A stretch of 64,000 nt of DNA. It comes from Patescibacteria group bacterium. Lineage in GTDB: Bacteria; Patescibacteriota; Minisyncoccia; Phycocordibacterales; JAKFXT01. How positions within the stretch are numbered: position 1 is the stretch's first letter; the number at the start of each line of letters is the position of its first letter. The position numbers and the translations under genes were made by a program. The notes under the pieces are model-generated. The model searched no databases. It was not told where the DNA came from and saw only the letters and a list, made by a program, of their open reading frames with translations. Below are positions 3,263 to 59,195 of the stretch, piece by piece. The DNA lies in assembly GCA_021731245.1 (NCBI GenBank), contig JAKFXT010000002.1, positions 24,164 to 88,163 of the forward strand. Direction: 5' to 3'.

Positions 3263-3457
3263 AATTTTTCGCACTGGTGGACCTATGGGGAATCGGACCC
3301 CAAATTCGATCATGCCATGATCGCGTATTACCACTATACTATAGGCCCTTGAACAAGCTTTTAGTTTTTAGCTACTAGCTTTTAGGAAAGAGTATACTAG
3401 AAATTATTACCTTTCAAATACTTGACTTGAAAGTATTAGGGGGGAGATAATTAGAAT

Positions 3458-3800: not shown

Positions 3801-4138
3801 GTAAATAGTTTTATATTCAGAAGTATTCGGACTGAGGATTTGTGAAAGAGCGAGCTTGTCTCCAGATGTTTTGTCGGAACATCTGTAACAACTCTTTTGC
3901 AAAACCAATATGTTTAGAATACGCGGGGCATTGGGTCTTGGTTTAACAATAATAATACTCCAAAACCTTGTGCCAGAGATCTTCGGAGCTTTTAGCAAAA
4001 CTCTTCTCACTTTTTTCAATGTGTTCATTAAGACATTGGAATTAGTTGATTTGAATTCGGTTGCAGATGTGAACCGTTTTCGCTAGAAGTTACATCGTCC
4101 CCGCGCAACTGCCGGGGACTTTCGTATTTAGGGGTTTT

Positions 4139-4166
4139 TTGCTACAATCTGTCTTGCCCATATAGT
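4139..4166 (+). promoter_or_regulatory. Candidate sigma70-type promoter for the ATP synthase operon
   Basis: TTGCTA-N16-TATAGT, located ~25 bp upstream of repeat copy 1 and atpB. Confidence 0.35.
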
Positions 4167-4190
4167 GTATTTTGGGCACTTTTTATTGTA

Positions 4191-4331
4191 TGGATCCCGT
4201 AGTAGAAAATGGCATTAGAGGAAGGCGGGGGATACAAAATATTACAATGGAGTCGAATATTAAAAGCAGAATTAATTTGAGTGGTCATATTGCTCTATAA
4301 AAGAGCGATGCCATTTTTCACTACCGGATGG
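4191..4331 (+). repeat. Copy 1 of a ~140-bp inverted-repeat-flanked element. Its last bases form the atpB start codon.
   Basis: Left arm TGGATCCCGTAGTAGAAAATGGCATTAGAG and right arm CTATAAAAGAGCGATGCCATTTTTCACTACCGGATGG form a ~28-bp imperfect inverted repeat. The element ends ...CACTACCGGATGG with the ATG at 4328. Confidence 0.85.
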
Positions 4332-5129: not shown

Positions 5130-5369
<240 letters not shown>

Positions 5370-5401: not shown

Positions 5402-5541
5402 TGGAATCCTGTAGTAGAAAATGGCATTAGAGAGAAAGTGAAAATATAAAAAATTATGTTAAAGTCGAATATTAGTAATTTAATTAAAATAAACTGGTAA
5501 CAGCTCTCTAAAGAGCGATGCCATTTTTCACTACGGGATGG
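5402..5541 (+). repeat. Copy 2 of the inverted-repeat element. It ends on the atpF start codon.
   Basis: Same terminal arms as copy 1 (…GTAGTAGAAAATGGCATTAGAG … AAAGAGCGATGCCATTTTTCACTACGGGATGG). Its internal ~60 bp are nearly identical to copy 3. Confidence 0.85.
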
Positions 5542-12975: not shown

Positions 12976-15825
12976 ATGATTTCGTACGACCATAAGAAAA
13001 TTGAAAAAAAGTGGCAAGCTATTTGGGAAAAAACCAAAGCTTTTAAAGCTAAATTTCCTTCAAAAACAAAGAAATTTTATGGTCTTATAGAATTCCCGTA
13101 CCCATCAGGTGATGGACTCCACGTGGGGCATATTAGAAGTAATACCGCTATGGATATTATTTCTAGAAAGCGTCGTGCTGAAGGATATAACGTACTTTAC
13201 CCAATGGGCTGGGACGCCTTCGGACTTCCTACAGAAAACTATGCGATTAAGACGGGAATTCATCCTGCTATTGTCACGAAGCAAAATACAGACACATTCC
13301 GAAAACAATTAAAAAATTTAGGATTCTCTTTTGATTGGGATAGAGAAATAAATACAACGGACCCAAAATATTATAAATGGACACAGTGGATTTTCTTACA
13401 ATTATTTAAAAAAGGCTTAGCTTATAAAGCCACTATACCTATTAATTGGTGTTTGAACTGTAAAGTTGGTTTAGCGAACGAAGAGGTGGTAGACGGAAAA
13501 TGCGAAAGATGTGGGGGACCAACAGAAAAAAGAGACAAAGAACAGTGGATGCTTGCTATTACTAAGTATGCTGACCGATTGGATAAAGATTTGGATTCCG
13601 TTGATTATTTACCGCAAATAAAAACACAACAGAGAAATTGGATAGGGCGTTCTGTAGGGGCTGAAATTGAATTTAAAATAAAAGGGACTGATAGTAGTTT
13701 AAAAGTTTTTACTACAAGACCAGATACGCTTTTTGGTGCCACATATGTAGTAATTGCACCAGAGCATAAAATTATAGATACGCTTAAAAATAAAATTAAT
13801 AATGCTCTTGAAGTGGGTATGTATGTGCAACTTGCAGCCAATCAAAATGAGATGGAACGTCTTGCAGAAGGTAAGGAAAAAACAGGTGTAGAAATAAAAG
13901 GAATTAAAGCAATTAATCCTGCAAATGGAGAAGAGCTTCCTGTTTATGTAGCTGACTATGTTTTATCTACATATGGTACGGGGGCAATAATGGCAGTTCC
14001 AGCGCACGATGAGAGGGATTATGAATTCGCTAAGAAGCTTAGTTTGCCAATCAAAGAAGTTGTAATACCAAGCAGAATAGATAGAAATAATCCACCGCGT
14101 AAAGAAGGTAAAAAAACAGTAGAAAGGACCAATGTTCATGCCATTATTAGAAATCCAAAGAATGGAAATATTTTGTGTTTAAAATGGAAAAAACAACCGT
14201 GGATTACTTTTCCTATGGGTGGAGTTGAAAAGGGAGAGGATTTGGTGGAAGCGGCTAGACGTGAGGCACGAGAAGAAACCGGCTATACCAACTTAAAGTT
14301 GGTGAAAGTCATGGGAGGTCTTGTTAAAGCTGAATATTTTGCGACGCATAAAAATGAAAACAGAGTGTCTTGGACCAACGCCGTAATGTTTGATTTAAGT
14401 GATGAATTTCAAGAAGAAAGGAGCGAGGAAGAAAAAAATAATTATGACCTTGTTTGGTTTTCTAAAAATGAAATAACTTATCCAAAAATAGTCCACGCAG
14501 AACTCGATATATGGTTATCACGTTGGGATAAAGAAGATTTTACATATATAGAGGAGGGTGTACTTATAAATTCTGGAAAGTTTGATGGAATGGAAAGTGA
14601 AAAAGCTAAGTCAGAAATTACAAAATTTGTTAAAGGTAAAAAAGTTACTAAATTTAAACTCCGTGATTGGGTTTTTTCCCGTCAAAGATATTGGGGGGAG
14701 CCGATACCTGTAATTAATTGTAAGAAATGTGGGCTTGTTCCAGTGCCCGAAAAACAACTTCCTGTATTACTGCCTGATGTAAAAAATTATAAGCCAACTG
14801 ATAATGGAGAATCTCCACTTGCAAATATTAATTATTGGGTAAATGTGAATTGCCCAAAGTGTAAAGGTAAAGCAAAAAGAGAAACTGATGTTATGCCAAA
14901 CTGGGCCGGGTCCTCTTGGTACTTCCTTCGTTATACGGACTCAAAAAATAATAAGGAATTTGCCTCTAAAAAGGCGCTTAAATACTTCACGCCCATTGAT
15001 TGGTACAACGGAGGAATGGAACACACTACACTACATCTTCTTTATTCAAGATTTTGGCACAAGTTTTTGTTTGATTTGAAATTAGTGCCAACAAAGGAAC
15101 CTTATCAAAAAAGGACTTCACATGGACTTATTCTTGCAGAAGGAGGAGTTAAAATGAGCAAGTCAAAAGGGAACGTTATTAACCCAGACACAATAGTAGA
15201 AAATGTCGGGGCGGACACTCTTCGTTTGTATGAAATGTTTATGGGTCCATTTGATCAAGCTATTGCTTGGAATGAAGACAGTATGGTTGGATGCCGCAGG
15301 TTTATAGAAAGAGTTATAAAACTAAGTGAAAAAATTAAGAATATACCAAATAAAAATGGAGATGAAACACTTGAAGTCTTAATAAATCAAACTATAAAGA
15401 AGGTGACTGAAGATATTGAGAGTATGAAGTTTAATACTGCCGTGAGTGCCATGATGATACTCTGTAATGAATTTGAAAAAAGAGAATTTATTTCAAAAAA
15501 TGAATTTGAAGTGTTTATAAAAATACTTTCTCCATTTACACCGCACATAACAGAAGAGCTCTGGCAGAACATTGGCAATAAAGGAAGTGTCCATTCTGTA
15601 AAATGGTCCGTATTTAATAAAAATAAATTATTAAATGATGAAGTTAATATTTCAGTTTCGGTGAACGGTAAAAGTAGGGGAATCGTAAAAGCAAAAAATG
15701 ATGCCACGGAAGAAGATGTTATACGTTTAGCAAAGAAGAATTCTGAAATAGAGAAGTGGATTAAAGAGTATGAGAAAGTTATATACGTTAAGGGTAAAAT
15801 TATAAATTTCGTAACAGGTAAATAA
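12976..15825 (+). CDS. leuS: Leucyl-tRNA synthetase with a Nudix hydrolase domain inserted after the editing-domain HDxRD motif. An alternative start exists at 12949.
   Basis: HIGH motif (HVGH), KMSKS, two Cys4 zinc knuckles, the TTRPDT editing motif and AHDERDYEFA. A ~160-aa insert (14065-14550) carries a perfect Nudix box, GGVEKGEDLVEAARREAREETGY. Confidence 0.9.
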   Translation: MISYDHKKIEKKWQAIWEKTKAFKAKFPSKTKKFYGLIEFPYPSGDGLHVGHIRSNTAMDIISRKRRAEGYNVLYPMGWDAFGLPTENYAIKTGIHPAIVTKQNTDTFRKQLKNLGFSFDWDREINTTDPKYYKWTQWIFLQLFKKGLAYKATIPINWCLNCKVGLANEEVVDGKCERCGGPTEKRDKEQWMLAITKYADRLDKDLDSVDYLPQIKTQQRNWIGRSVGAEIEFKIKGTDSSLKVFTTRPDTLFGATYVVIAPEHKIIDTLKNKINNALEVGMYVQLAANQNEMERLAEGKEKTGVEIKGIKAINPANGEELPVYVADYVLSTYGTGAIMAVPAHDERDYEFAKKLSLPIKEVVIPSRIDRNNPPRKEGKKTVERTNVHAIIRNPKNGNILCLKWKKQPWITFPMGGVEKGEDLVEAARREAREETGYTNLKLVKVMGGLVKAEYFATHKNENRVSWTNAVMFDLSDEFQEERSEEEKNNYDLVWFSKNEITYPKIVHAELDIWLSRWDKEDFTYIEEGVLINSGKFDGMESEKAKSEITKFVKGKKVTKFKLRDWVFSRQRYWGEPIPVINCKKCGLVPVPEKQLPVLLPDVKNYKPTDNGESPLANINYWVNVNCPKCKGKAKRETDVMPNWAGSSWYFLRYTDSKNNKEFASKKALKYFTPIDWYNGGMEHTTLHLLYSRFWHKFLFDLKLVPTKEPYQKRTSHGLILAEGGVKMSKSKGNVINPDTIVENVGADTLRLYEMFMGPFDQAIAWNEDSMVGCRRFIERVIKLSEKIKNIPNKNGDETLEVLINQTIKKVTEDIESMKFNTAVSAMMILCNEFEKREFISKNEFEVFIKILSPFTPHITEELWQNIGNKGSVHSVKWSVFNKNKLLNDEVNISVSVNGKSRGIVKAKNDATEEDVIRLAKKNSEIEKWIKEYEKVIYVKGKIINFVTGK

Positions 15826-22931: not shown

Positions 22932-24686
22932 ATGACTTCTGAAGAAATACGTAAACGCTTTTTAACTTTTTTTGAGACTAGAGGGCATAAAATTATACCC
23001 TCAGCTTCACTTGTGCCAGAAAATGACCCCACTGTCCTTTTTAATACAGCGGGAATGCAACCTTTAGTCCCGTATCTTATGGGAACACTTCATCCTGCTG
23101 GAAAACGCCTTGTAGATGTACAAAAATGTGTTCGCACTGGAGACCTTGAAGATATAGGCGACAATAGACATTTTTCTTTTTTTGAAATGATGGGAAATTG
23201 GTCTTTAGGTGATTATTTTAAAAAAGAAGCAATAACCTGGAGCTACGAATTCCTTACTTCTAAAGATGAAGGTTTGGGATTAGACCCATCTCGTCTTTAT
23301 GTAACTTGCTTTGAGGGCGATGACAATGCTCCGAAGGATGATGAATCTCCTAAGATTTGGATGGATTTAGGAATTCCTAAAGAAAGAATTTATTTTTTAG
23401 GAGCCGAAGATAATTGGTGGAGTCCAGGAGACAATGGTCCGTGCGGACCTGATACTGAGATGTTCTATGATTTTACTGAAAAAGGTACGGGGAAACTTTC
23501 TAAAGAAGAGTTTCTTAGTGCTGTAAAAAGTGAACATCTTATTGAAATCTGGAATGATGTTTTTATGGAGTATCAAAAAAAGGATGGAAAAGTTATCGGT
23601 AAATTAACTCAAAAAAACGTAGATACGGGCGCTGGGCTTGAGCGTATAAGCGCTTTGATGCAGAAAAAGAAAACGGCATACGACACAGATCTTTTTGAAG
23701 GAATTATGAGTAAAATAAAGGATTTTTCATTGGAACCAAATACCAAATCAATGAGAATAGTAGCCGATCACATTAGAACTTCTGTTTTTCTTATAGCTGA
23801 TGGAGTTACTCCTTCTAATACAGACCAAGGATATATTTTGCGTCGACTTTTGCGTCGGGCTGTCACTTCCGCTGATAAACTTAAAATGAAAAGTGGAGAT
23901 ATTTCACTATTGGCCGATGTAGTTATAGAAAAATATCAAAATATTTATTCAAATCTTAAAGAAAAAGAAATTGATATAAAACGCGAGATAAATGAAGAGG
24001 AAACAAGGTTTAGAAAAACTCTTACAGAAGGATTGAAGGAATTCAAAAAACTTTCAACAGGTAAGATTACAGGACATGAAGCTTTCACCCTCTTTTCTAC
24101 TTATGGCTTTCCATTTGAAATGACGAGAGAGCTGGCTATTGAATTTGGCAAAGAAATTGACGAGAATGCTTTTAAAGAAGAAATGATGAAGCATCAAGAA
24201 ATATCGCGCGTAGGAGCTGAACAAAAATTTAAAGGGGGTCTTGGAGACACGAGTGAAGTGTCTGTTAAATATCACACAGCTACTCACTTGCTTCACCAGG
24301 CACTTCGAGATGTTTTAGGAGACAAAGTTTATCAAAAAGGAAGTAATATAACACCGGAGAGATTGCGTTTTGATTTTTCATATGGAGAAAAGATGACTCC
24401 AGAGCAGAAAAAATTAGTAGAAGATTTAATTAATGACAAAATAAATCAGTCTTTACCTGTAACATATGAAGATTTACCAATAGACGAGGCTAAGAAAAAG
24501 GGGGCTATCGGATTATTTGAAGAAAAATATGGAGATAAAGTAAGAGTTTATAAAATAGGGGATTTTAGTTTGGAATTTTGTGGAGGCCCTCATGTCAATA
24601 ACACTAAAGAACTTGGTATTTTCAAAATAGAAAAAGAGGAAGCAATTTCGGCTGGAGTAAGAAGAATTAAAGCAACCCTTAAATAA
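22932..24686 (+). CDS. alaS: Alanyl-tRNA synthetase, short form (584 aa) lacking the C-terminal C-Ala/oligomerisation domain
   Basis: Class II AlaRS N-terminus (FFETRGHKIIPSASLVP...) and editing-domain motifs HxxxH (HTATHLLH) and CGGPH. Confidence 0.9.
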   Translation: MTSEEIRKRFLTFFETRGHKIIPSASLVPENDPTVLFNTAGMQPLVPYLMGTLHPAGKRLVDVQKCVRTGDLEDIGDNRHFSFFEMMGNWSLGDYFKKEAITWSYEFLTSKDEGLGLDPSRLYVTCFEGDDNAPKDDESPKIWMDLGIPKERIYFLGAEDNWWSPGDNGPCGPDTEMFYDFTEKGTGKLSKEEFLSAVKSEHLIEIWNDVFMEYQKKDGKVIGKLTQKNVDTGAGLERISALMQKKKTAYDTDLFEGIMSKIKDFSLEPNTKSMRIVADHIRTSVFLIADGVTPSNTDQGYILRRLLRRAVTSADKLKMKSGDISLLADVVIEKYQNIYSNLKEKEIDIKREINEEETRFRKTLTEGLKEFKKLSTGKITGHEAFTLFSTYGFPFEMTRELAIEFGKEIDENAFKEEMMKHQEISRVGAEQKFKGGLGDTSEVSVKYHTATHLLHQALRDVLGDKVYQKGSNITPERLRFDFSYGEKMTPEQKKLVEDLINDKINQSLPVTYEDLPIDEAKKKGAIGLFEEKYGDKVRVYKIGDFSLEFCGGPHVNNTKELGIFKIEKEEAISAGVRRIKATLK

Positions 24687-50836: not shown

Positions 50837-51316
50837 ATGTCACACATAAACGAGAAAATTGACTACACAGTGGATGTTTATATTGTCTACAAAAATAAAG
50901 TACTGCTCCGTTTACATGAAAAATACAATGTTTGGCTTGGAGTTGGTGGCCACATAGAACTTGATGAAAATCCAAATCAAGCAGCAATTCGTGAAGTAAA
51001 AGAAGAAGTTGGTCTCGACATAACTATTTTTAATTCCTTAGATTTAGAAATATCTAAAATTAATAAAGAAAAAAAGAATGGAAAATATTTAGAATTAATA
51101 CCTCCAGTCTTTATGAATATGCATCCAATAGATGATATTCACAGTCATGTATCTTTAATATATTTCGCTGAAGCCAAGAATGATGAGGTTATTCCAGAAA
51201 ACATTGATGATCAATGGAAATGGTTGTCCAAAAAAGAATTAGAGGAAATGCAAAATGAAATTCATCCTCAAGTTTATCTCTATGCAAACAAAGCATTAGA
51301 GTGTTTGACAAATTAA
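50837..51316 (+). CDS. Nudix hydrolase
   Basis: Perfect Nudix box, GGHIELDENPNQAAIREVKEEVGL (Gx5Ex7REUxEExGU). Confidence 0.75.
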   Translation: MSHINEKIDYTVDVYIVYKNKVLLRLHEKYNVWLGVGGHIELDENPNQAAIREVKEEVGLDITIFNSLDLEISKINKEKKNGKYLELIPPVFMNMHPIDDIHSHVSLIYFAEAKNDEVIPENIDDQWKWLSKKELEEMQNEIHPQVYLYANKALECLTN

Positions 51317-51394
51317 ATAATAAATTGTAAAGTTTTTAAAGCGTACAAATTGGGCAATCTTGCCCAAACCAAACAAAGAAAGGTGGATAAAACC

Positions 51395-52329: not shown

Positions 52330-52740
52330 ATGGCTGCAATGAAAGCTCCAAAAAACAAACCTTTCGCAACCAAAGCGAAAGTCCTTTTCTATGATGGATT
52401 GAGAGTCTTTGCCACCGAAGTGCCACACGGCCTCAAAGTGGTTTTCTGGCCGATTGAGAGTCAGCGTCATTACAAAAATACGCCCGCAACGATGGGGAGA
52501 TTGATTCTCTTGACCAATGCTCCTCGCGAAAGTCACGTGCTGCTCGAAGTGGATGGCGTTCCAAGAAAAGAATGTGGGCGCATGATGCGAATTCTTGGCT
52601 TTTGCTTCATCAGCGGAGACCACCGCGAAGGACATTTCTTGTCCTCTCGCAAAATGTCGAGAAACCATCGCAGTCACGATTCTCGCAACAAACTCATCAA
52701 CCAGTGGGTCAAAGGAGAAATCGACACCTGCTCACGTTAA
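52330..52740 (+). CDS. Hypothetical 136-aa protein
   Basis: Strong RBS ACAGGAGGattccgcaATG and a clean downstream terminator. The overlapping antisense ORF lacks both. Confidence 0.5.
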   Translation: MAAMKAPKNKPFATKAKVLFYDGLRVFATEVPHGLKVVFWPIESQRHYKNTPATMGRLILLTNAPRESHVLLEVDGVPRKECGRMMRILGFCFISGDHREGHFLSSRKMSRNHRSHDSRNKLINQWVKGEIDTCSR

Positions 52741-52745
52741 AATTC

Positions 52746-52790
52746 AACCGCTTCACAGGAAACCTGGGAGCGGTTTTCTGTTTTTATAAT
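52746..52790 (+). terminator. Rho-independent terminator
   Basis: AACCGCT-tcacaggaaacctggg-AGCGGTT followed by ttctgttttt. Confidence 0.6.
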
Positions 52791-52798
52791 TGAAAAAA

Positions 52799-52966
52799 TT
52801 ATTCAGGTTTCTTTTTATAAACTTCGTAAGCTGAATAAAGAACGAGCCAGACACAAAATATATAGAGCCAAGTATCATCTTTGCCGTTTACCCACCAAGC
52901 GATTACAAGAAAAGCAAAGACCCCGATGAAGACGAACATCATTCCGTATTTCTTTAAGATATCCAT
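52799..52966 (-). CDS. Possible 55-aa two-helix membrane peptide (MDILKKYGMMFVFIGVFAFLVIAWW...)
   Basis: An ATG-initiated ORF below the track threshold. Hydrophobic, found by manual translation. Confidence 0.3.
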   Translation of the reverse strand: MDILKKYGMMFVFIGVFAFLVIAWWVNGKDDTWLYIFCVWLVLYSAYEVYKKKPE

Positions 52967-53001
52967 AATATTTCAATTGTTACAGATGGATTATTTGTTT
53001 T

Positions 53002-53205
53002 TTATGAACTACCATCACCACCGCCACTGCCGCCATCACCAGTAGAGCCTCCGTCAGTACTTTCAGAGCCATTTGCTCCATCTGCTTCAGAGCCTGACTC
53101 TTCAGAATCATCTGAGGGAAAGACGGGAGCAGTATAGGCGCCTCCATCTCCACTATCCTTATTAGGTTTCTTAGGTCCAAACATTTTTTTGAATATTTCA
53201 AACAT
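53002..53205 (-). CDS. Hypothetical small acidic Gly/Ser/Asp-rich protein (67 aa)
   Basis: Low-complexity acidic tail (DGGSTGDGGSGGGDGSS). Preceded on the minus strand by a ~290-nt GC-rich leader. Confidence 0.35.
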   Translation of the reverse strand: MFEIFKKMFGPKKPNKDSGDGGAYTAPVFPSDDSEESGSEADGANGSESTDGGSTGDGGSGGGDGSS

Positions 53206-53284
53206 ATAACTAATTATATCAGGCTTTGTATCTTACCTCCTTGACCAAATAAAAAAAGCCGCACCCAATTTATTTTTATTATAA

Positions 53285-53490
53285 ATTCTGGGGTACGGCT
53301 GGTATTGCGAGCCAACAAACGAGCTGACATCGAGAGTGTTTCGAGCAAAACAACGAGAAGAACAACGAGTCGCGAATGACCCCCGAGGAACCACGACGCG
53401 CATCAGACCTTGAAAGAACTTGGGGACGGCCGTCCCTTTCGAACTCCCAGAAGACCTGTTGGCCTAGCGTCAACCGTAACCCCTCGGAGG
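53285..53490 (-). ncRNA. Candidate structured GC-rich non-coding RNA or long 5' leader. Family unknown.
   Basis: Upstream minus-strand promoter TTGACA-N18-TATTTT (plus coordinates 53497-53526). The ends pair (GGGGTTACGG with CCGTACCCC). Internal hairpins include GGGACGG/CCGTCCC. No convincing ORF. Confidence 0.3.
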
Positions 53491-53551
53491 TATATAGAAA
53501 ATAACAATTAGATGACTTTCTGTCAATTCACCCTCGAAAAAGGAGATTGTC

Positions 53552-54037
53552 TCACAAAATAGAAAAAGTAAGTGTCATTGGAGAATGGAAAGGTGTGGCA
53601 CTCCATTGCCCCTTTAACTTACGAAAACATTCTTGCGTCATTCTAATAGATTCCTCAATAAGCCAAGGCGGCAATGGTTCATGATAACTATTATATAAAT
53701 TATTAAAGCTCTCCATCGCTTCAATGGGAGTAATTAAATCTTTCATTACAGCCGTTAGTACTCCTACGACTCGCTCGGTATTTACGATCTCAGAATCTCG
53801 CAGTGGGTCTGAGCTACCTAGCCCAGAAGAAAGCTCAGCGTAAGATTTTCCTGATGCCAATAATCCAAAGAACGAATATTTAAGGCCCACCTGTGTTTCA
53901 AGTGCATAATGAATCAAGTCATGCTCAAGGGTGCTCTTCGTCTCATTTTTTACTATATCCCAGTCTCCATCTCCTTTTCTATATTCAAACATGTGATGGG
54001 TCGGGGATATTCGGGTAAAACGGATCGTGAGAATCAT
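53552..54037 (-). CDS. Hypothetical 161-aa protein
   Basis: ORF in the island with no recognised motif. Confidence 0.45.
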   Translation of the reverse strand: MILTIRFTRISPTHHMFEYRKGDGDWDIVKNETKSTLEHDLIHYALETQVGLKYSFFGLLASGKSYAELSSGLGSSDPLRDSEIVNTERVVGVLTAVMKDLITPIEAMESFNNLYNSYHEPLPPWLIEESIRMTQECFRKLKGQWSATPFHSPMTLTFSIL

Positions 54038-54129
54038 TCACTTATTTTATCAAATTATGTAGAACCTTGAAAAAGGAAAGAAAAGTGATAGAAATAAAGG
54101 TAGACCACCTCACAGGAGGGAGATAACAC

Positions 54130-54225
54130 ATGGAAGACCACGGTGATACGATTCCGCCAGTCGGCTCTTATCAGACGATTGCCTTCGCGGTTTGCCACCC
54201 AGTAAAATTCGTACAGTCGCTCTAG
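54130..54225 (+). CDS. Possible 31-aa peptide (MEDHGDTIPPVGSYQTIAFAVCHPVKFVQSL)
   Basis: Strong RBS CAGGAGGGagataacacATG. Upstream TTGAAA-N17-AGAAAT at ~54066. A downstream plus-strand terminator at 54268-54296. Confidence 0.3.
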   Translation: MEDHGDTIPPVGSYQTIAFAVCHPVKFVQSL

Positions 54226-54267: not shown

Positions 54268-54296
54268 TTCTCAACCCCCCGCTTCGGCGGGGTTTT
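54268..54296 (+). terminator. Rho-independent terminator (plus strand)
   Basis: CCCCCCGC-ttcg-GCGGGG followed by ttttttc. Confidence 0.6.
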
Positions 54297-54370: not shown

Positions 54371-54676
54371 TTACCTCTTCTTCGGTTTTGGTTTCTCAGG
54401 TCCTTTCTTGTCAGAATCTCCAATATCTTGTATCGGAGACATTAACGGTTCATTCGAAAGCCGAGCGTCAAATTTTTGTCCAGTTTTCGCTTCGATTTCT
54501 TCTACTTGTTTTAAAAGCAATCTTCCTATTTGTTTGGCGGTGGCTAAGTGGAAAAGAAACGTATATTTCTCTGTCCCTGACCTCAACCAGAACTGAAGTA
54601 AGCCATTCACAGCCTGAGCTTTAGCTTCGTCGACAAAAATCTTTTCAGGGCCATTTGTAAATATAGGGTCTTCCAT
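54371..54676 (-). CDS. Hypothetical 101-aa protein with a basic C-terminal tail. Apparently leaderless.
   Basis: Near-consensus promoter TTGACA-N16-TAGAAT whose -10 ends ~7 nt before the ATG. No SD. Confidence 0.5.
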   Translation of the reverse strand: MEDPIFTNGPEKIFVDEAKAQAVNGLLQFWLRSGTEKYTFLFHLATAKQIGRLLLKQVEEIEAKTGQKFDARLSNEPLMSPIQDIGDSDKKGPEKPKPKKR

Positions 54677-56922: not shown

Positions 56923-57358
56923 AAATTTCTTTTCTTATTTTCATCCAAATTTTACCCATCATGTTTTCTCCTGAACCATTTTCTCCCGTACCCCAGAAAT
57001 AATCTTCTGGATGATTTTTCTCAATAATTTTATCAGCGGTCTTTATAAGCATTCTTTTGACATCGTCATGCTGTTCTAATTTTGCCTTCATAACCTTTTC
57101 CATGACAGAAACCTTATCAAAAGGTTCCTTGCGACCATTTTTACTTCCTCCATACTCTCTGGCAAGAAATGCGCTCGGAGCTTCTTTTATCTTCTTTCTT
57201 ATTTCAATATCAGAAAATTTGGAAACCTGATAGGCATGTTCTGATGTCATATACTCTTCCCCCTCGAATACTACTTTGTGCGCTGAGAAATTTGAAAGAA
57301 GATAGAATGGCCCTTCGTAAAATTTAATTTTATTATCATCAGTAGACTTACTCTCCAT
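56909..57358 (-). CDS. NADAR/YbiA-family (DUF1768) protein
   Basis: FYLLSNFSAHKVVFEGEEYMTSEHAYQVSKF... and the DYFWGTGENGSGENMMGKIWMKIR region match YbiA/NADAR. Confidence 0.7.
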   Translation of the reverse strand: MESKSTDDNKIKFYEGPFYLLSNFSAHKVVFEGEEYMTSEHAYQVSKFSDIEIRKKIKEAPSAFLAREYGGSKNGRKEPFDKVSVMEKVMKAKLEQHDDVKRMLIKTADKIIEKNHPEDYFWGTGENGSGENMMGKIWMKIRKEIYGNN

Positions 57359-57665
57359 ACATTTCTAATTTTATTTTTTGAAGCTCCTCAATTGTTTTTG
57401 AATCAGTAATTTTTGTAAATCTAGGAAAAGTTTTTCCATCTTTTTCTACCATACCCATCCACATATCTAATGGGCGCACAACATGTGTCGCCGGAGCTAA
57501 AAAATCATTTTCATAAAGAGGTCTGTATATGACGGTGTAATTTCGTTCTTCAGAATGAAGTGCGACTCCAACATATTCATAAGAATAGTTATTCATATCC
57601 CCTTTCGGGTCGTGTTTGTAATGATAATAGAATCCTTTTTCCGGAATTTTTTTAATTATCTCCAT
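57348..57665 (-). CDS. Small conserved protein, paralog 1 (resembles DUF1653 by recall)
   Basis: KGFYYHYKHDPKG...YRPLYE...VRPLDMWMG.VEKDGKTFPRF.KITD. About 60% identical to the adjacent gene. Confidence 0.45.
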   Translation of the reverse strand: MEIIKKIPEKGFYYHYKHDPKGDMNNYSYEYVGVALHSEERNYTVIYRPLYENDFLAPATHVVRPLDMWMGMVEKDGKTFPRFTKITDSKTIEELQKIKLEMYGE

Positions 57666-57990
57666 ACATTTCTTTTTTAGTTTTTTCCAATTCTTTTATA
57701 ATTTTTTCATCAGTAATCTTGGCAAATCTAGGAAATGTCTTCCCATCTTTTTCTACTATACCCATCCACATATCTAATGGACGAACATCATACATTTTAC
57801 CTGCCTTGTAAACTGCCGCCTCATATAATGGTCTATAAATTATCATATTCTCATCTTCCGGTCGGCAATCTTCTTCTGTGTGCACTCCTGCGCCAATATA
57901 TTCATAAGCGTAATTATTTACACTCCCCTTCGGGTCGTGTTTGTAATGATAATAAAATCCTTTTTCAGGAACTTTAGTAGGTATTTTCAT
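57652..57990 (-). CDS. Small conserved protein, paralog 2 (tandem duplicate)
   Basis: Same motif set as 57348..57665. The two genes overlap by 14 nt. Confidence 0.45.
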   Translation of the reverse strand: MKIPTKVPEKGFYYHYKHDPKGSVNNYAYEYIGAGVHTEEDCRPEDENMIIYRPLYEAAVYKAGKMYDVRPLDMWMGIVEKDGKTFPRFAKITDEKIIKELEKTKKEMYGDN

Positions 57991-58019
57991 ATAAAAAATA
58001 ATATCACATAAACAGAAAT

Positions 58020-58048
58020 CGTCCGCGAGACGATCTCTGCGGACGAAA
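58020..58048 (-). terminator. Rho-independent terminator for the 58051..58506 gene
   Basis: GTCCGC-gagacgatctct-GCGGAC followed on the minus strand by gatttctgttt. Confidence 0.5.
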
Positions 58049-58050
58049 AA

Positions 58051-58506
58051 CTACTTTGCTTTGGGATATTTGGGATACCAGAATGGATGCCACGTCCACG
58101 GCAAAATCTTGTAGATATAGCTTGAGTGCCATCCAAACCTGGTGATGATCCAACGATTCTGGTCTTCGATGTCTTTCCAGCCGTTGTCATACCCTATTTG
58201 CCACCCCGAATCTCCCCAGTCCACCCCGATGCGAGTTCCAGAAGCTCCTCCTGGGGCCTCAAACTTCCACTTGCGAAAGTTGAACTTGAAAACCGCGAAG
58301 TGGATACGGCCCTTATAGGCGCTTCCCATAGGCCACTGCCAGAAGTAGAGATCCCAGCTAAAGAAGCCGTAGAACCTCCAAGAAACGAGGGGCGGAATGG
58401 AGTTGTTCAAGAAGAAGTCCTTGAAACTCCACCAAAACGACCTGAACCTGAAACCAATGCGACTTTCAATGCGACGGAACGCTTCCAAACAAATCGAGTT
58501 TCTCAT
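58051..58506 (-). CDS. Hypothetical Trp/aromatic-rich protein (14 Trp in 151 aa), GC-rich
   Basis: SD GGAAGGGG sits 8 nt upstream. Terminators lie on both sides. The overlapping plus-strand ORF looks like a wrong-frame reading. Confidence 0.5.
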   Translation of the reverse strand: MRNSICLEAFRRIESRIGFRFRSFWWSFKDFFLNNSIPPLVSWRFYGFFSWDLYFWQWPMGSAYKGRIHFAVFKFNFRKWKFEAPGGASGTRIGVDWGDSGWQIGYDNGWKDIEDQNRWIITRFGWHSSYIYKILPWTWHPFWYPKYPKAK

Positions 58507-58593
58507 TTTGAAAACCCCTTCCTGAGTTGGTGTTCTGTAGCAAAAATACTGCCTACTTGTAACATTAAAAAATTAATAGACTAATGTAAAGCA

Positions 58594-58625
58594 AAAAGCC
58601 CCCCGATGTTACATCGGGGGGCTTT
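58594..58625. terminator. Bidirectional rho-independent terminator
   Basis: GCCCCCCGATG-ttac/gtaa-CATCGGGGGGC flanked by A and T runs. Confidence 0.65.
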
Positions 58626-58736
58626 TTGGATAATTTCTGGTTTTATAATGACAAGCGAGGAGCGGAGCGAAAATTTATTTTCATTTCGTCCGAGTGAAGT
58701 CATTATATAAGAGCGACCTCACCTTTCCTGCTGCTT

Positions 58737-59195
58737 CTATTTCTTATTAAGAGCCAACTTTGCTTCAGTTTTTAACTTAGCTATTTTTGGTCCCCAACAA
58801 GGCTTTGAGGCACTCCATGGTTGTAAGCCTTCTCTCTCATAGAGATATCTAGCGTATGCCATATTGCCTTTCAAGTCATAGATGTCGTAACCAAGTTCTT
58901 CTGAGTCTACCTGATGGTAGTGCTCATTAACCTGCATAACACCTACGTCCTTACTATTAACCACACCGCGAATCGTATTACCTTCACTATCCGCTTGGCG
59001 GAAACGTGACTCACAATACGCTACTTGAATCATCTCTGGGATGTCTTCAAAGTATGAACGAACTTCTTTTTCAACGAAAATGTATTTCTTATTCTCCTTG
59101 CGGGAACTTTCCGTTATTAGCACTTCCTCCTGTTTAGGAGTTGGTACTTGTTCGTTTACCGGTTGATTATCATTATTGTTAATGTTCGAGATCAA
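58737..59195 (-). CDS. Transglycosylase-like (lysozyme-like) domain protein. Start codon uncertain (TTG in the track, no in-frame ATG).
   Basis: VAYCESRFRQ...GVMQVNEHYH resembles Rpf/SLT-like transglycosylase domains (CES...G..Q.N..W). The in-frame upstream region encodes a hydrophobic stretch without an ATG. Confidence 0.45.
   Translation of the reverse strand: MISNINNNDNQPVNEQVPTPKQEEVLITESSRKENKKYIFVEKEVRSYFEDIPEMIQVAYCESRFRQADSEGNTIRGVVNSKDVGVMQVNEHYHQVDSEELGYDIYDLKGNMAYARYLYEREGLQPWSASKPCWGPKIAKLKTEAKLALNKK

Follow-up and report, generated by a model that had tools for sequence, protein, structure and literature searches.

Small RNAs of the 3'-UTR type that have an internal promoter share the terminator of the upstream mRNA, as is the case for the enterobacterial RNAs of the DapZ and MicL type. 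In riboswitches of the ON type, such as the pbuE/ydhL adenine riboswitch, the closing helix and the terminator share a strand, which serves as 3' strand in the former and as 5' arm in the latter. To our knowledge, regulatory RNAs of Patescibacteria (Candidate Phyla Radiation) have hardly been described, and we know of no RNA chaperone or small-RNA regulon in this group. A survey of the literature on regulatory RNAs in Patescibacteria found nothing relevant.

Here we describe a locus in a patescibacterial chromosome, located in a stretch of 64,000 nucleotides that was analysed as a whole (the window, 64 kb). The locus looks like a gene for a small non-coding RNA of about 240 bases that forms a long hairpin and is equipped with a terminator and a promoter of its own. 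We regard it as a candidate for a bacterial small RNA of the promoter-to-terminator kind that has an attenuator-like alternative fold; it is an orphan, strain-specific and represented by a single sequence. As in the small RNAs of the 3'-UTR type, the putative promoter lies at the end of the upstream gene (here 26 nt after its stop codon), one Rho-independent terminator would serve both the mRNA and the small RNA, and the order of the parts is a structured 5' portion, an open region and the terminator hairpin. The candidate differs from them in its length of about 241 nt, which exceeds that of most, and in that neither a conserved seed, nor a significant target, nor a sequence relation to any Rfam family was found.

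The likeness to the pbuE/ydhL riboswitch lies in a closing helix, formed between the 5' end and a distant strand on the 3' side, that competes with a terminator upstream of a gene on the same strand. In contrast to the riboswitch, no conserved aptamer or Rfam riboswitch match was found, the 113-nt hairpin of the candidate acts in the predictions as a third competitor that sequesters the 5' strand by default, and the gene that follows carries, by sequence consensus, a promoter of its own and lacks a usable Shine-Dalgarno (SD) spacing. With 6S RNA the candidate shares the size class (about 200 nt), a promoter of its own and ends that are complementary to each other. However, it folds into a hairpin plus tail or into a multi-branch structure instead of a rod with a central bubble, it gives no match to the Rfam 6S models even at E<=10, and its gene is absent in the sister species, which would be unlikely for a housekeeping RNA. 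An assignment to 6S RNA was rejected on the grounds of the fold and the missing match. If verified, the candidate would be a useful first example of a promoter-to-terminator small RNA in such a reduced genome, and its value would be greater if the competition between hairpin, long-range helix and terminator turned out to be functional; as it stands, it bears on no open question yet.

Genomic setting

The host is a patescibacterium of the Parcubacteria-like kind, and the window is a piece of its chromosome that carries the genes for DnaK, AspRS, MraY, FtsW, MurG and GltX. The nearest genome records, found via GltX, were all metagenome-assembled genomes of Patescibacteria, the closest of them with 84% amino-acid identity in this protein. 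According to blastn, this closest genome (L004) is collinear with the window on both sides of the locus and lacks a cassette of 1.29 kb, which in the window holds the 161-aa gene, the RNA unit and two small ORFs (Table 1). On either side of the cassette, a presence/absence polymorphism between the two species, lies a direct repeat of 8 nt, TTGAAAAA (52790-52797 and 54067-54074), of which L004 has one copy. The cassette may have been acquired. Since the sister species is without the whole cassette, the RNA would be dispensable.

GC content is about 36% over the window and 41-43% between 50 and 55 kb. The segment itself reaches 56.5% (200 nt, 53291-53490), which is the 99.98th percentile of 200-nt windows. 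The neighbouring genes conserved in the sister species are likewise GC-rich (49-50%), and thus the GC richness of the segment alone is no proof of structure.

The 161-aa gene directly upstream has a TAAAAT box 6 nt before its ATG and belongs to an uncharacterised His-rich family with invariant SPTHH and HD..H..E motifs. In the protein library the family forms 17 clusters, and at least 296 relatives (up to 46% identity) come from metagenomes. The structure model of the protein is confident (pLDDT 92); it matched no Pfam family, and a profile search of PDB sequences came back empty. The genomic context of the family is not conserved, with the exception of one sub-clade in which small membrane and acidic ORFs follow. 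A conserved three-gene module of an enzyme, a small membrane protein and a small acidic protein was considered and rejected, as it was seen only in loci L003 and L080-L083 and was absent from most of the 42 loci. No defence or phage family matched the proteins of the cassette or its neighbours (PADLOC gave no match), and the one weak PHROG match fell on an unrelated neighbour. Contigs encoding either an identical copy of the 136-aa neighbour (two, both short) or the 67-aa protein were 100% identical to the window, with no variation among them. A contig from the runs SRR10388252 and SRR10388253 ends at 53497.

Table 1. Positions of the features discussed in the text, in window coordinates
Feature	Position	Strand	Remarks
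Cassette, 1.29 kb	52783-54069	genes on minus	161-aa gene, RNA unit, 67-aa ORF, 55-aa ORF
161-aa gene, uncharacterised His-rich family	53552-54037	minus	-10 box TAAAAT at 54049-54044
Promoter-like site, sigma-70 type	53526-53498	minus	TTGACA, 17-nt spacer, TGnTATTTT
Predicted transcript (candidate small RNA), ~241 nt	53491-53251	minus	ends predicted from geometry of promoter and terminator
Long irregular hairpin at the 5' end (nt 1-113)	53491-53379	minus	fold prediction
Alternative helix, 5' strand GGGGUUACGGUUG	53483-53471	minus	also in closing stem of 5' hairpin
Apical palindromic hairpin GGGAC-GGCC-GUCCC	53436-53423	minus	tip of long hairpin
Middle region, weakly structured, pyrimidine-rich (GUUGUUCUUCUCGUUGUUUUGCUCG...)	53378-53302	minus	small GUCAGC/GUUGGC hairpin
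Alternative helix, 3' strand CAGCCGUACCCC	53301-53290	minus	identical with terminator 5' arm
Intrinsic terminator	53300-53251	minus	AGCCGUACCC/GGGUGCGGCU stem, AU-rich loop, U run
64-codon ORF, TTG start	53473-53279	minus	spans almost the whole unit; stop in terminator loop
SD-like AAGGAGGT	53241-53234	minus	~28 nt before 67-aa ATG
Extended -10 box TGATATAAT	53221-53213	minus	7 nt before 67-aa ATG
67-aa acidic Gly/Ser/Asp-rich ORF	53002-53205	minus	GC3 0.27, +0.38 bits per codon
55-aa hydrophobic ORF, last cassette gene	52799-52966	minus	weak DUF6442 match, E 0.009
Other promoter-pattern site	51305-51333		before ORF at 51350
Other promoter-pattern site	54710-54683		before ATG at 54676

Putative promoter, terminator and predicted transcript

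The initial annotation of this DNA, made from the letters alone, had pointed to a GC-rich, structured and promoter-driven non-coding segment on the minus strand. This was partly confirmed: what had been observed does exist and exceeds chance to some degree, and the features described are present, with corrections. Both promoter hexamers are present, with TTGACA at 53526-53521 and TATTTT at 53503-53498 (minus strand), but the spacer between them is 17 nt instead of 18, and the -10 box is preceded by TG and hence of the extended type. From this consensus geometry, transcription is predicted to start at A 53491 of the minus strand. Unlike in the leaderless genes of the same genome, there is no start codon at this position. 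The pattern TTGACA-N16-18-TAnnnT is not enriched in the window (4 sites in 64 kb vs 3.0 expected). Of the three further sites, at least two are located directly 5' of ORF starts.

The 3' end needed a larger correction. The segment had been taken to end at 53285, which falls inside the loop of an intrinsic terminator that had been overlooked, and the unit extends to about 53251. The terminator consists of a 10-bp stem between AGCCGUACCC (53300-53291) and GGGUGCGGCU (53266-53257), an AU-rich loop with an inner AU helix, and a U run reaching to 53251. Its z-score is -2.8 and its pairs have probabilities of 0.85-1.0 in the full-length ensemble. No other terminator was found downstream of the 161-aa gene, there being none between the stop codon (53552) and 53300, and therefore the RNA unit would also form the 3' UTR of the 161-aa mRNA. 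According to promoter consensus and thermodynamic prediction, a promoter and a Rho-independent terminator thus bracket a non-coding unit.

Fold of the RNA unit

The full unit has a minimum free energy (MFE) of -82.5 to -82.9 kcal/mol (z -2.4). Against dinucleotide shuffles, the z-scores of the folds range from -2.2 to -2.8 and are moderate. The most prominent element is the 113-nt hairpin, which begins at the first nucleotide of the predicted RNA and folds with -49 kcal/mol (z -2.2). When both strands of the 64 kb were scanned in 120-nt windows (12,778 in all), its stability ranked third, with -47.4 kcal/mol for the hairpin window against a mean of -19.4 (sd 6.6), that is, 4.2 SD from the mean; the two windows that are more stable are terminator clusters. 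The hairpin has 42 pairs (24 G-C, 9 A-U and 9 G-U), and because 9 of the 42 are G-U, the opposite strand reaches only -34.5 kcal/mol (z -0.8). Such an asymmetry of the strands points to an RNA of the minus strand and not to a DNA palindrome.

The smaller pairings that had been noted by eye fared differently. The GGGACGG/CCGTCCC hairpin is present at the tip of the long hairpin, as GGGAC-GGCC-GUCCC. The proposed pairing of GCCAAC with GUUGGC is found in neither of the best folds, GUUGGC being paired locally with GUCAGC. This local hairpin belongs to the middle region, through which the RNA might contact its partners in case it acts in trans. When the open middle was scanned against the 62 start regions of genes in the 64 kb, the result was not significant (p 0.09); the best duplex, with the gene at 22932, had -41.4 kcal/mol and was matched by 9% of the shuffles.

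Complementarity of the 5' and 3' ends, which had also been proposed, is real and longer than described. GGGGU-UACGGUUG pairs with CAGCCGUACCCC over 12 bp with one bulge (-21.6 kcal/mol). As the 3' strand of this helix is the 5' arm of the terminator, the long-range helix and the terminator are mutually exclusive. A complementarity of this kind to the terminator arm was reached in 2.6% of shuffles when any upstream position was allowed and in 0.2% when only the first 30 nt were considered. In the predicted folding path of the growing RNA, the 113-nt hairpin is preferred between nt 115 and nt 200. At nt 204, when CAGCCGUACCCC has been made, the best fold is a multi-branch structure closed by the 12-bp helix (-68.8 vs -61.9 kcal/mol for the hairpin fold), and at nt 236, with the 3' arm of the terminator made, the fold of hairpin plus terminator is again the best with -82.5 kcal/mol. 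In the full-length ensemble, the probability of the terminator is about 1 and that of the alternative helix about 0. As predicted from one sequence, hairpin, helix and terminator compete in the manner of an ON-type attenuator, which keeps alive the possibility that the segment is a leader.

Searches for related RNAs

It had been stated that the segment resembles no RNA family recognisable by eye, and the Rfam check agrees with this. None of the 4227 models of Rfam 15 reached its gathering score anywhere in the window, and at E<=10 the area around the segment gave matches at chance level only (E 2-9, 11-18 bits). That the RNA is not tmRNA was upheld by ARAGORN, which found neither tmRNA nor tRNA at the locus and in the whole window only tRNA-Ala at 3275-3348.

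The segment has no paralog within the window, and blastn against phage and plasmid records gave no match. With nhmmer and blastn, no homolog was detected in the window, in the first 3 loci or in the 78 loci searched thereafter. A covariance model of the hairpin, built on the single sequence, and nhmmer recovered only the segment itself from 72 sequences that included Patescibacteria loci (1.06 Mb). In 80 loci with relatives of the 161-aa gene, the covariance model gave one non-significant match (E 2.7) and nhmmer none. Six degenerate 24-nt patterns, representing 144 of the 192 bases of the 64-codon ORF, were run against viral and metagenome contigs and returned nothing confirmable. Since no homolog was found, neither covariation nor conservation backs the reading as a small RNA.

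Coding potential of the segment

The claim that the segment contains no credible ORF held in part only. A 64-codon ORF starting with TTG spans the unit, with the SD-like sequence GAGGGG 6 nt upstream of the start, and an ORF of this length was found in 6% of shuffles (p 0.06). However, its codon usage is poor, at -0.60 bits per codon compared to +0.27 +/- 0.06 in 25 long genes of the window, and its GC1/2/3 profile is flat (0.55/0.48/0.58). Four ORFs of the segment were tested, three from the minus and one from the plus strand; all had coding scores that were zero or negative, and none matched Pfam. The 64-aa product had no homolog among 5.8 billion sequences. When 1.84 billion representatives were searched in full with HMMER, only three matches came up, all to repeat-containing proteins and each made up of 2 to 5 stretches; these were treated as chance matches inflated by the repeats. 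The ORF was judged to be probably non-coding.

Weighing the explanations

The explanation we favour, with a probability of roughly 0.4, is that the minus strand encodes a small RNA of about 241 nt, either stand-alone or of the 3'-UTR type. Of the possibilities listed initially (a small RNA, a leader resembling a riboswitch or the RNA component of a system), an RNA product agrees with a segment that is stable, asymmetric between the strands, bracketed by a promoter-like site and a terminator, and non-coding by score. A role as leader was weakened by the analysis, and a role as the RNA component of a system found no support, with no defence or phage matches and nothing beyond the single non-significant match in the 80 loci. 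In the favoured reading, transcription would start at the TTGACA-17-TGnTATTTT promoter and end at the terminator, and the product would consist of the GC-rich 113-nt hairpin at the 5' end, a pyrimidine-rich and poorly paired middle, and the terminator hairpin. The same unit would additionally be made as the 3' UTR of the 161-aa mRNA. We infer that the RNA would act alone, either by base-pairing through its open middle or by binding a protein. It would not be a switch for the genes downstream, because the next gene has its own leaderless promoter past the terminator.

A self-contained RNA is thus ranked first. A cis-acting leader seems unlikely; it would control the 67-aa and 55-aa genes as a riboswitch-like transcription attenuator of the ON type. 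In the default state, formation of the 5' hairpin would come first and transcription would stop at the terminator; in the ON state, a ligand, protein or RNA would free GGGGUUACGGUUG to pair with CAGCCGUACCCC, and the terminator would lose its arm, resulting in read-through. The segment does lie 5' of a gene on the same strand, 45 nt separating the U run from the ATG, and it does end in an intrinsic terminator. The 12-bp helix overlaps the terminator arm exactly, belongs to the MFE structure of the nascent 204-nt RNA and excludes the terminator in the single-sequence prediction; its rarity in shuffles, especially in the first 30 nt, also speaks for a leader, as does an SD-like AAGGAGGT, a motif rare in this genome, after the terminator. 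Against this, the 67-aa ORF has by sequence consensus an extended -10 box of its own, TGATATAAT, 7 nt before its ATG, and read-through would not be needed. The full-length ensemble is given over to the terminator, and as the hairpin forms about 90 nt ahead of the competing strand, the default path would be a kinetic trap. Moreover, 28 nt separate the SD-like site from the ATG and no start codon follows it at 5-10 nt, no conserved aptamer is demonstrable among homologs, of which none were found, and the small genes offer no hint of a ligand.

That the segment is a non-functional spacer is about as unlikely as the leader. It would then be made up of the terminator of the 161-aa gene, a fortuitous promoter and GC-rich hairpins from acquired or decayed DNA. 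This agrees with a cassette by which the window differs, through insertion or deletion, from the sister species, with the 49-72% GC of the DNA in which all other relatives of the 161-aa gene found are situated (a GC-rich origin being plausible), with promoter-like sites that do not exceed chance, with z-scores of only about -2 and with the lack of conservation anywhere. However, third-position GC in the flanking genes of the cassette is low (0.36 and 0.27), and 56.5% in the spacer between them would be unexpected for unconstrained DNA in a background of 36% GC. Translated comparison with the small proteins that follow the 161-aa homologs gave noise only and no gene remnant, and neither the strand asymmetry due to G-U pairs nor the rank-3 stability would be expected of junk. 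A gene for a small protein, with the 64-codon ORF translated and the hairpin controlling its translation, is clearly more doubtful. The ORF fills the unit from promoter to terminator, few shuffles match its length, and SD motifs are used by several genes in this part of the window, but neither host-like codon usage nor homologs elsewhere were found, and the TTG start is buried together with its SD-like site in the 16-bp closing stem of the hairpin. We hold it very unlikely that the segment founds a new class of regulatory RNA in Patescibacteria, be it as an ON-type attenuator with a 5' strand that alternates, on some signal, between the 113-nt hairpin and an anti-terminator helix, or as the RNA partner of the 161-aa family.

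The downstream gene and leaderless transcripts

The acidic 67-aa ORF with an SD-like motif far from its ATG was described correctly, AAGGAGGT being placed about 28 nt away. No homolog of the ORF was found in our search, and it is probably a real, leaderless gene. Its own -10 box stands at the distance typical of leaderless genes, and this accounts for the seemingly misplaced SD, so that AAGGAGGT is probably not the ribosome-binding site of this ORF. Because the box lies after the terminator, the terminator parts two transcription units. In the window, an SD-like motif was found in 11 of the 62 genes, and 20 of the 62 have TAnnnT 5-8 nt before the start codon. Judged from these upstream sequences, leaderless mRNAs are evidently widely used in this genome; in about ten genes, the box at this distance is a consensus-like TATAAT or TAAAAT.

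Cassette and flanking genes

A 1.29-kb cassette of the window, carrying the candidate small RNA (RNA unit), is missing in L004, the closest available genome and a sister species (compare L004 14258-14267). It is bracketed by an 8-nt direct repeat, TTGAAAAA, of which L004 has one copy. This arrangement would fit the gain of the cassette by insertion with target duplication, or else its loss by deletion between short repeats.

Features of the window and of the public contigs matching it
Feature	Window position	Strand	Remarks
Cassette	52783-54069		161-aa gene, RNA unit, 67-aa ORF, 55-aa ORF
Direct repeat TTGAAAAA	52790-52797; 54067-54074		
136-aa ORF	52330-52740	plus	GC 49%; AGGAGG SD
SD-like motif AAGGAGGT	53234-53241	minus	
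Small conserved ORF MEDHGDTIPPVGSYQTIAFAVCHPVKFVQSL	54130-54225	plus	L004 counterpart 14325-14510
Terminator after MEDHGDTIPPVGSYQTIAFAVCHPVKFVQSL	54277-54292		
Stretch without L004 counterpart	57253-58750		~1.5 kb; includes 112-aa ORF
151-aa ORF	58051-58506	minus	GC-rich (up to 56%); Trp, Phe, Tyr abundant
Bidirectional terminator	58593-58628		strong
~135-nt element	~4195-4327; ~5405-5537	plus	
Logan contig L084	52126-53497		
Logan contig L085	52221-53237		

Within the cassette, a strong Shine-Dalgarno-like (SD-like) motif, AAGGAGGT, lies directly past the terminator of the RNA unit. No start codon follows this motif at a distance of 5-10 nt, and it is complementary to the 5' end of the candidate small RNA (ACCUCC). 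Two public Logan contigs, from the runs SRR10388253 and SRR10388252, match the window at 100% identity. One of them stops at 53497, 6 nt away from where transcription of the RNA is predicted to begin, and this contig end would count as transcript evidence if the runs were RNA libraries.

Next to the cassette, the 136-aa ORF is a real gene with a homolog of 143 aa in L004 (13775-14206), and the 141-aa minus-strand ORF overlapping it is probably an artefact. Unusually high GC was also detected in several neighbouring genes that are conserved in L004. The small ORF MEDHGDTIPPVGSYQTIAFAVCHPVKFVQSL differs from L004 by third-position changes that are synonymous. The ORF is closed by TAG in the window, while L004 has TGG at the same place, and the frame beyond the TAG is still conserved (RMFTEAAGWQ). 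The TAG may have arisen recently as a nonsense mutation, or it may be a site of stop-codon read-through. Further along the window there is a second stretch without a counterpart in L004, where the 151-aa ORF has an SD-like motif (GGAAGGGG) and its own terminator.

Gene starts and a repeated element

SD-like motifs were found in only 11 of the 62 genes whose starts were surveyed across the whole window. A TAnnnT box 5-8 nt ahead of the start codon was present in 20/62, about 10 of these boxes being consensus-like (TATAAT or TAAAAT). Together, the few SD-like motifs and the position of the TAnnnT boxes suggest that leaderless mRNAs are widespread in this Patescibacterium.

Each of the two copies of the ~135-nt element immediately precedes an ATP-synthase gene, probably atpB (at 4328) and atpF (at 5538). 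The conserved 5' end of the element, GTAGTAGAAAATGGCAT, is complementary to its conserved 3' end, GATGCCATTTTTCACTAC, over ~17 bp, and no match to it was obtained when the whole window was searched against Rfam 15 at gathering score. The element may function as a structured leader or a processing element. When the 120-nt windows of the 64 kb are ranked by stability, the top 15 include two that are located just upstream of the copies (4091-4210 and 5161-5280).
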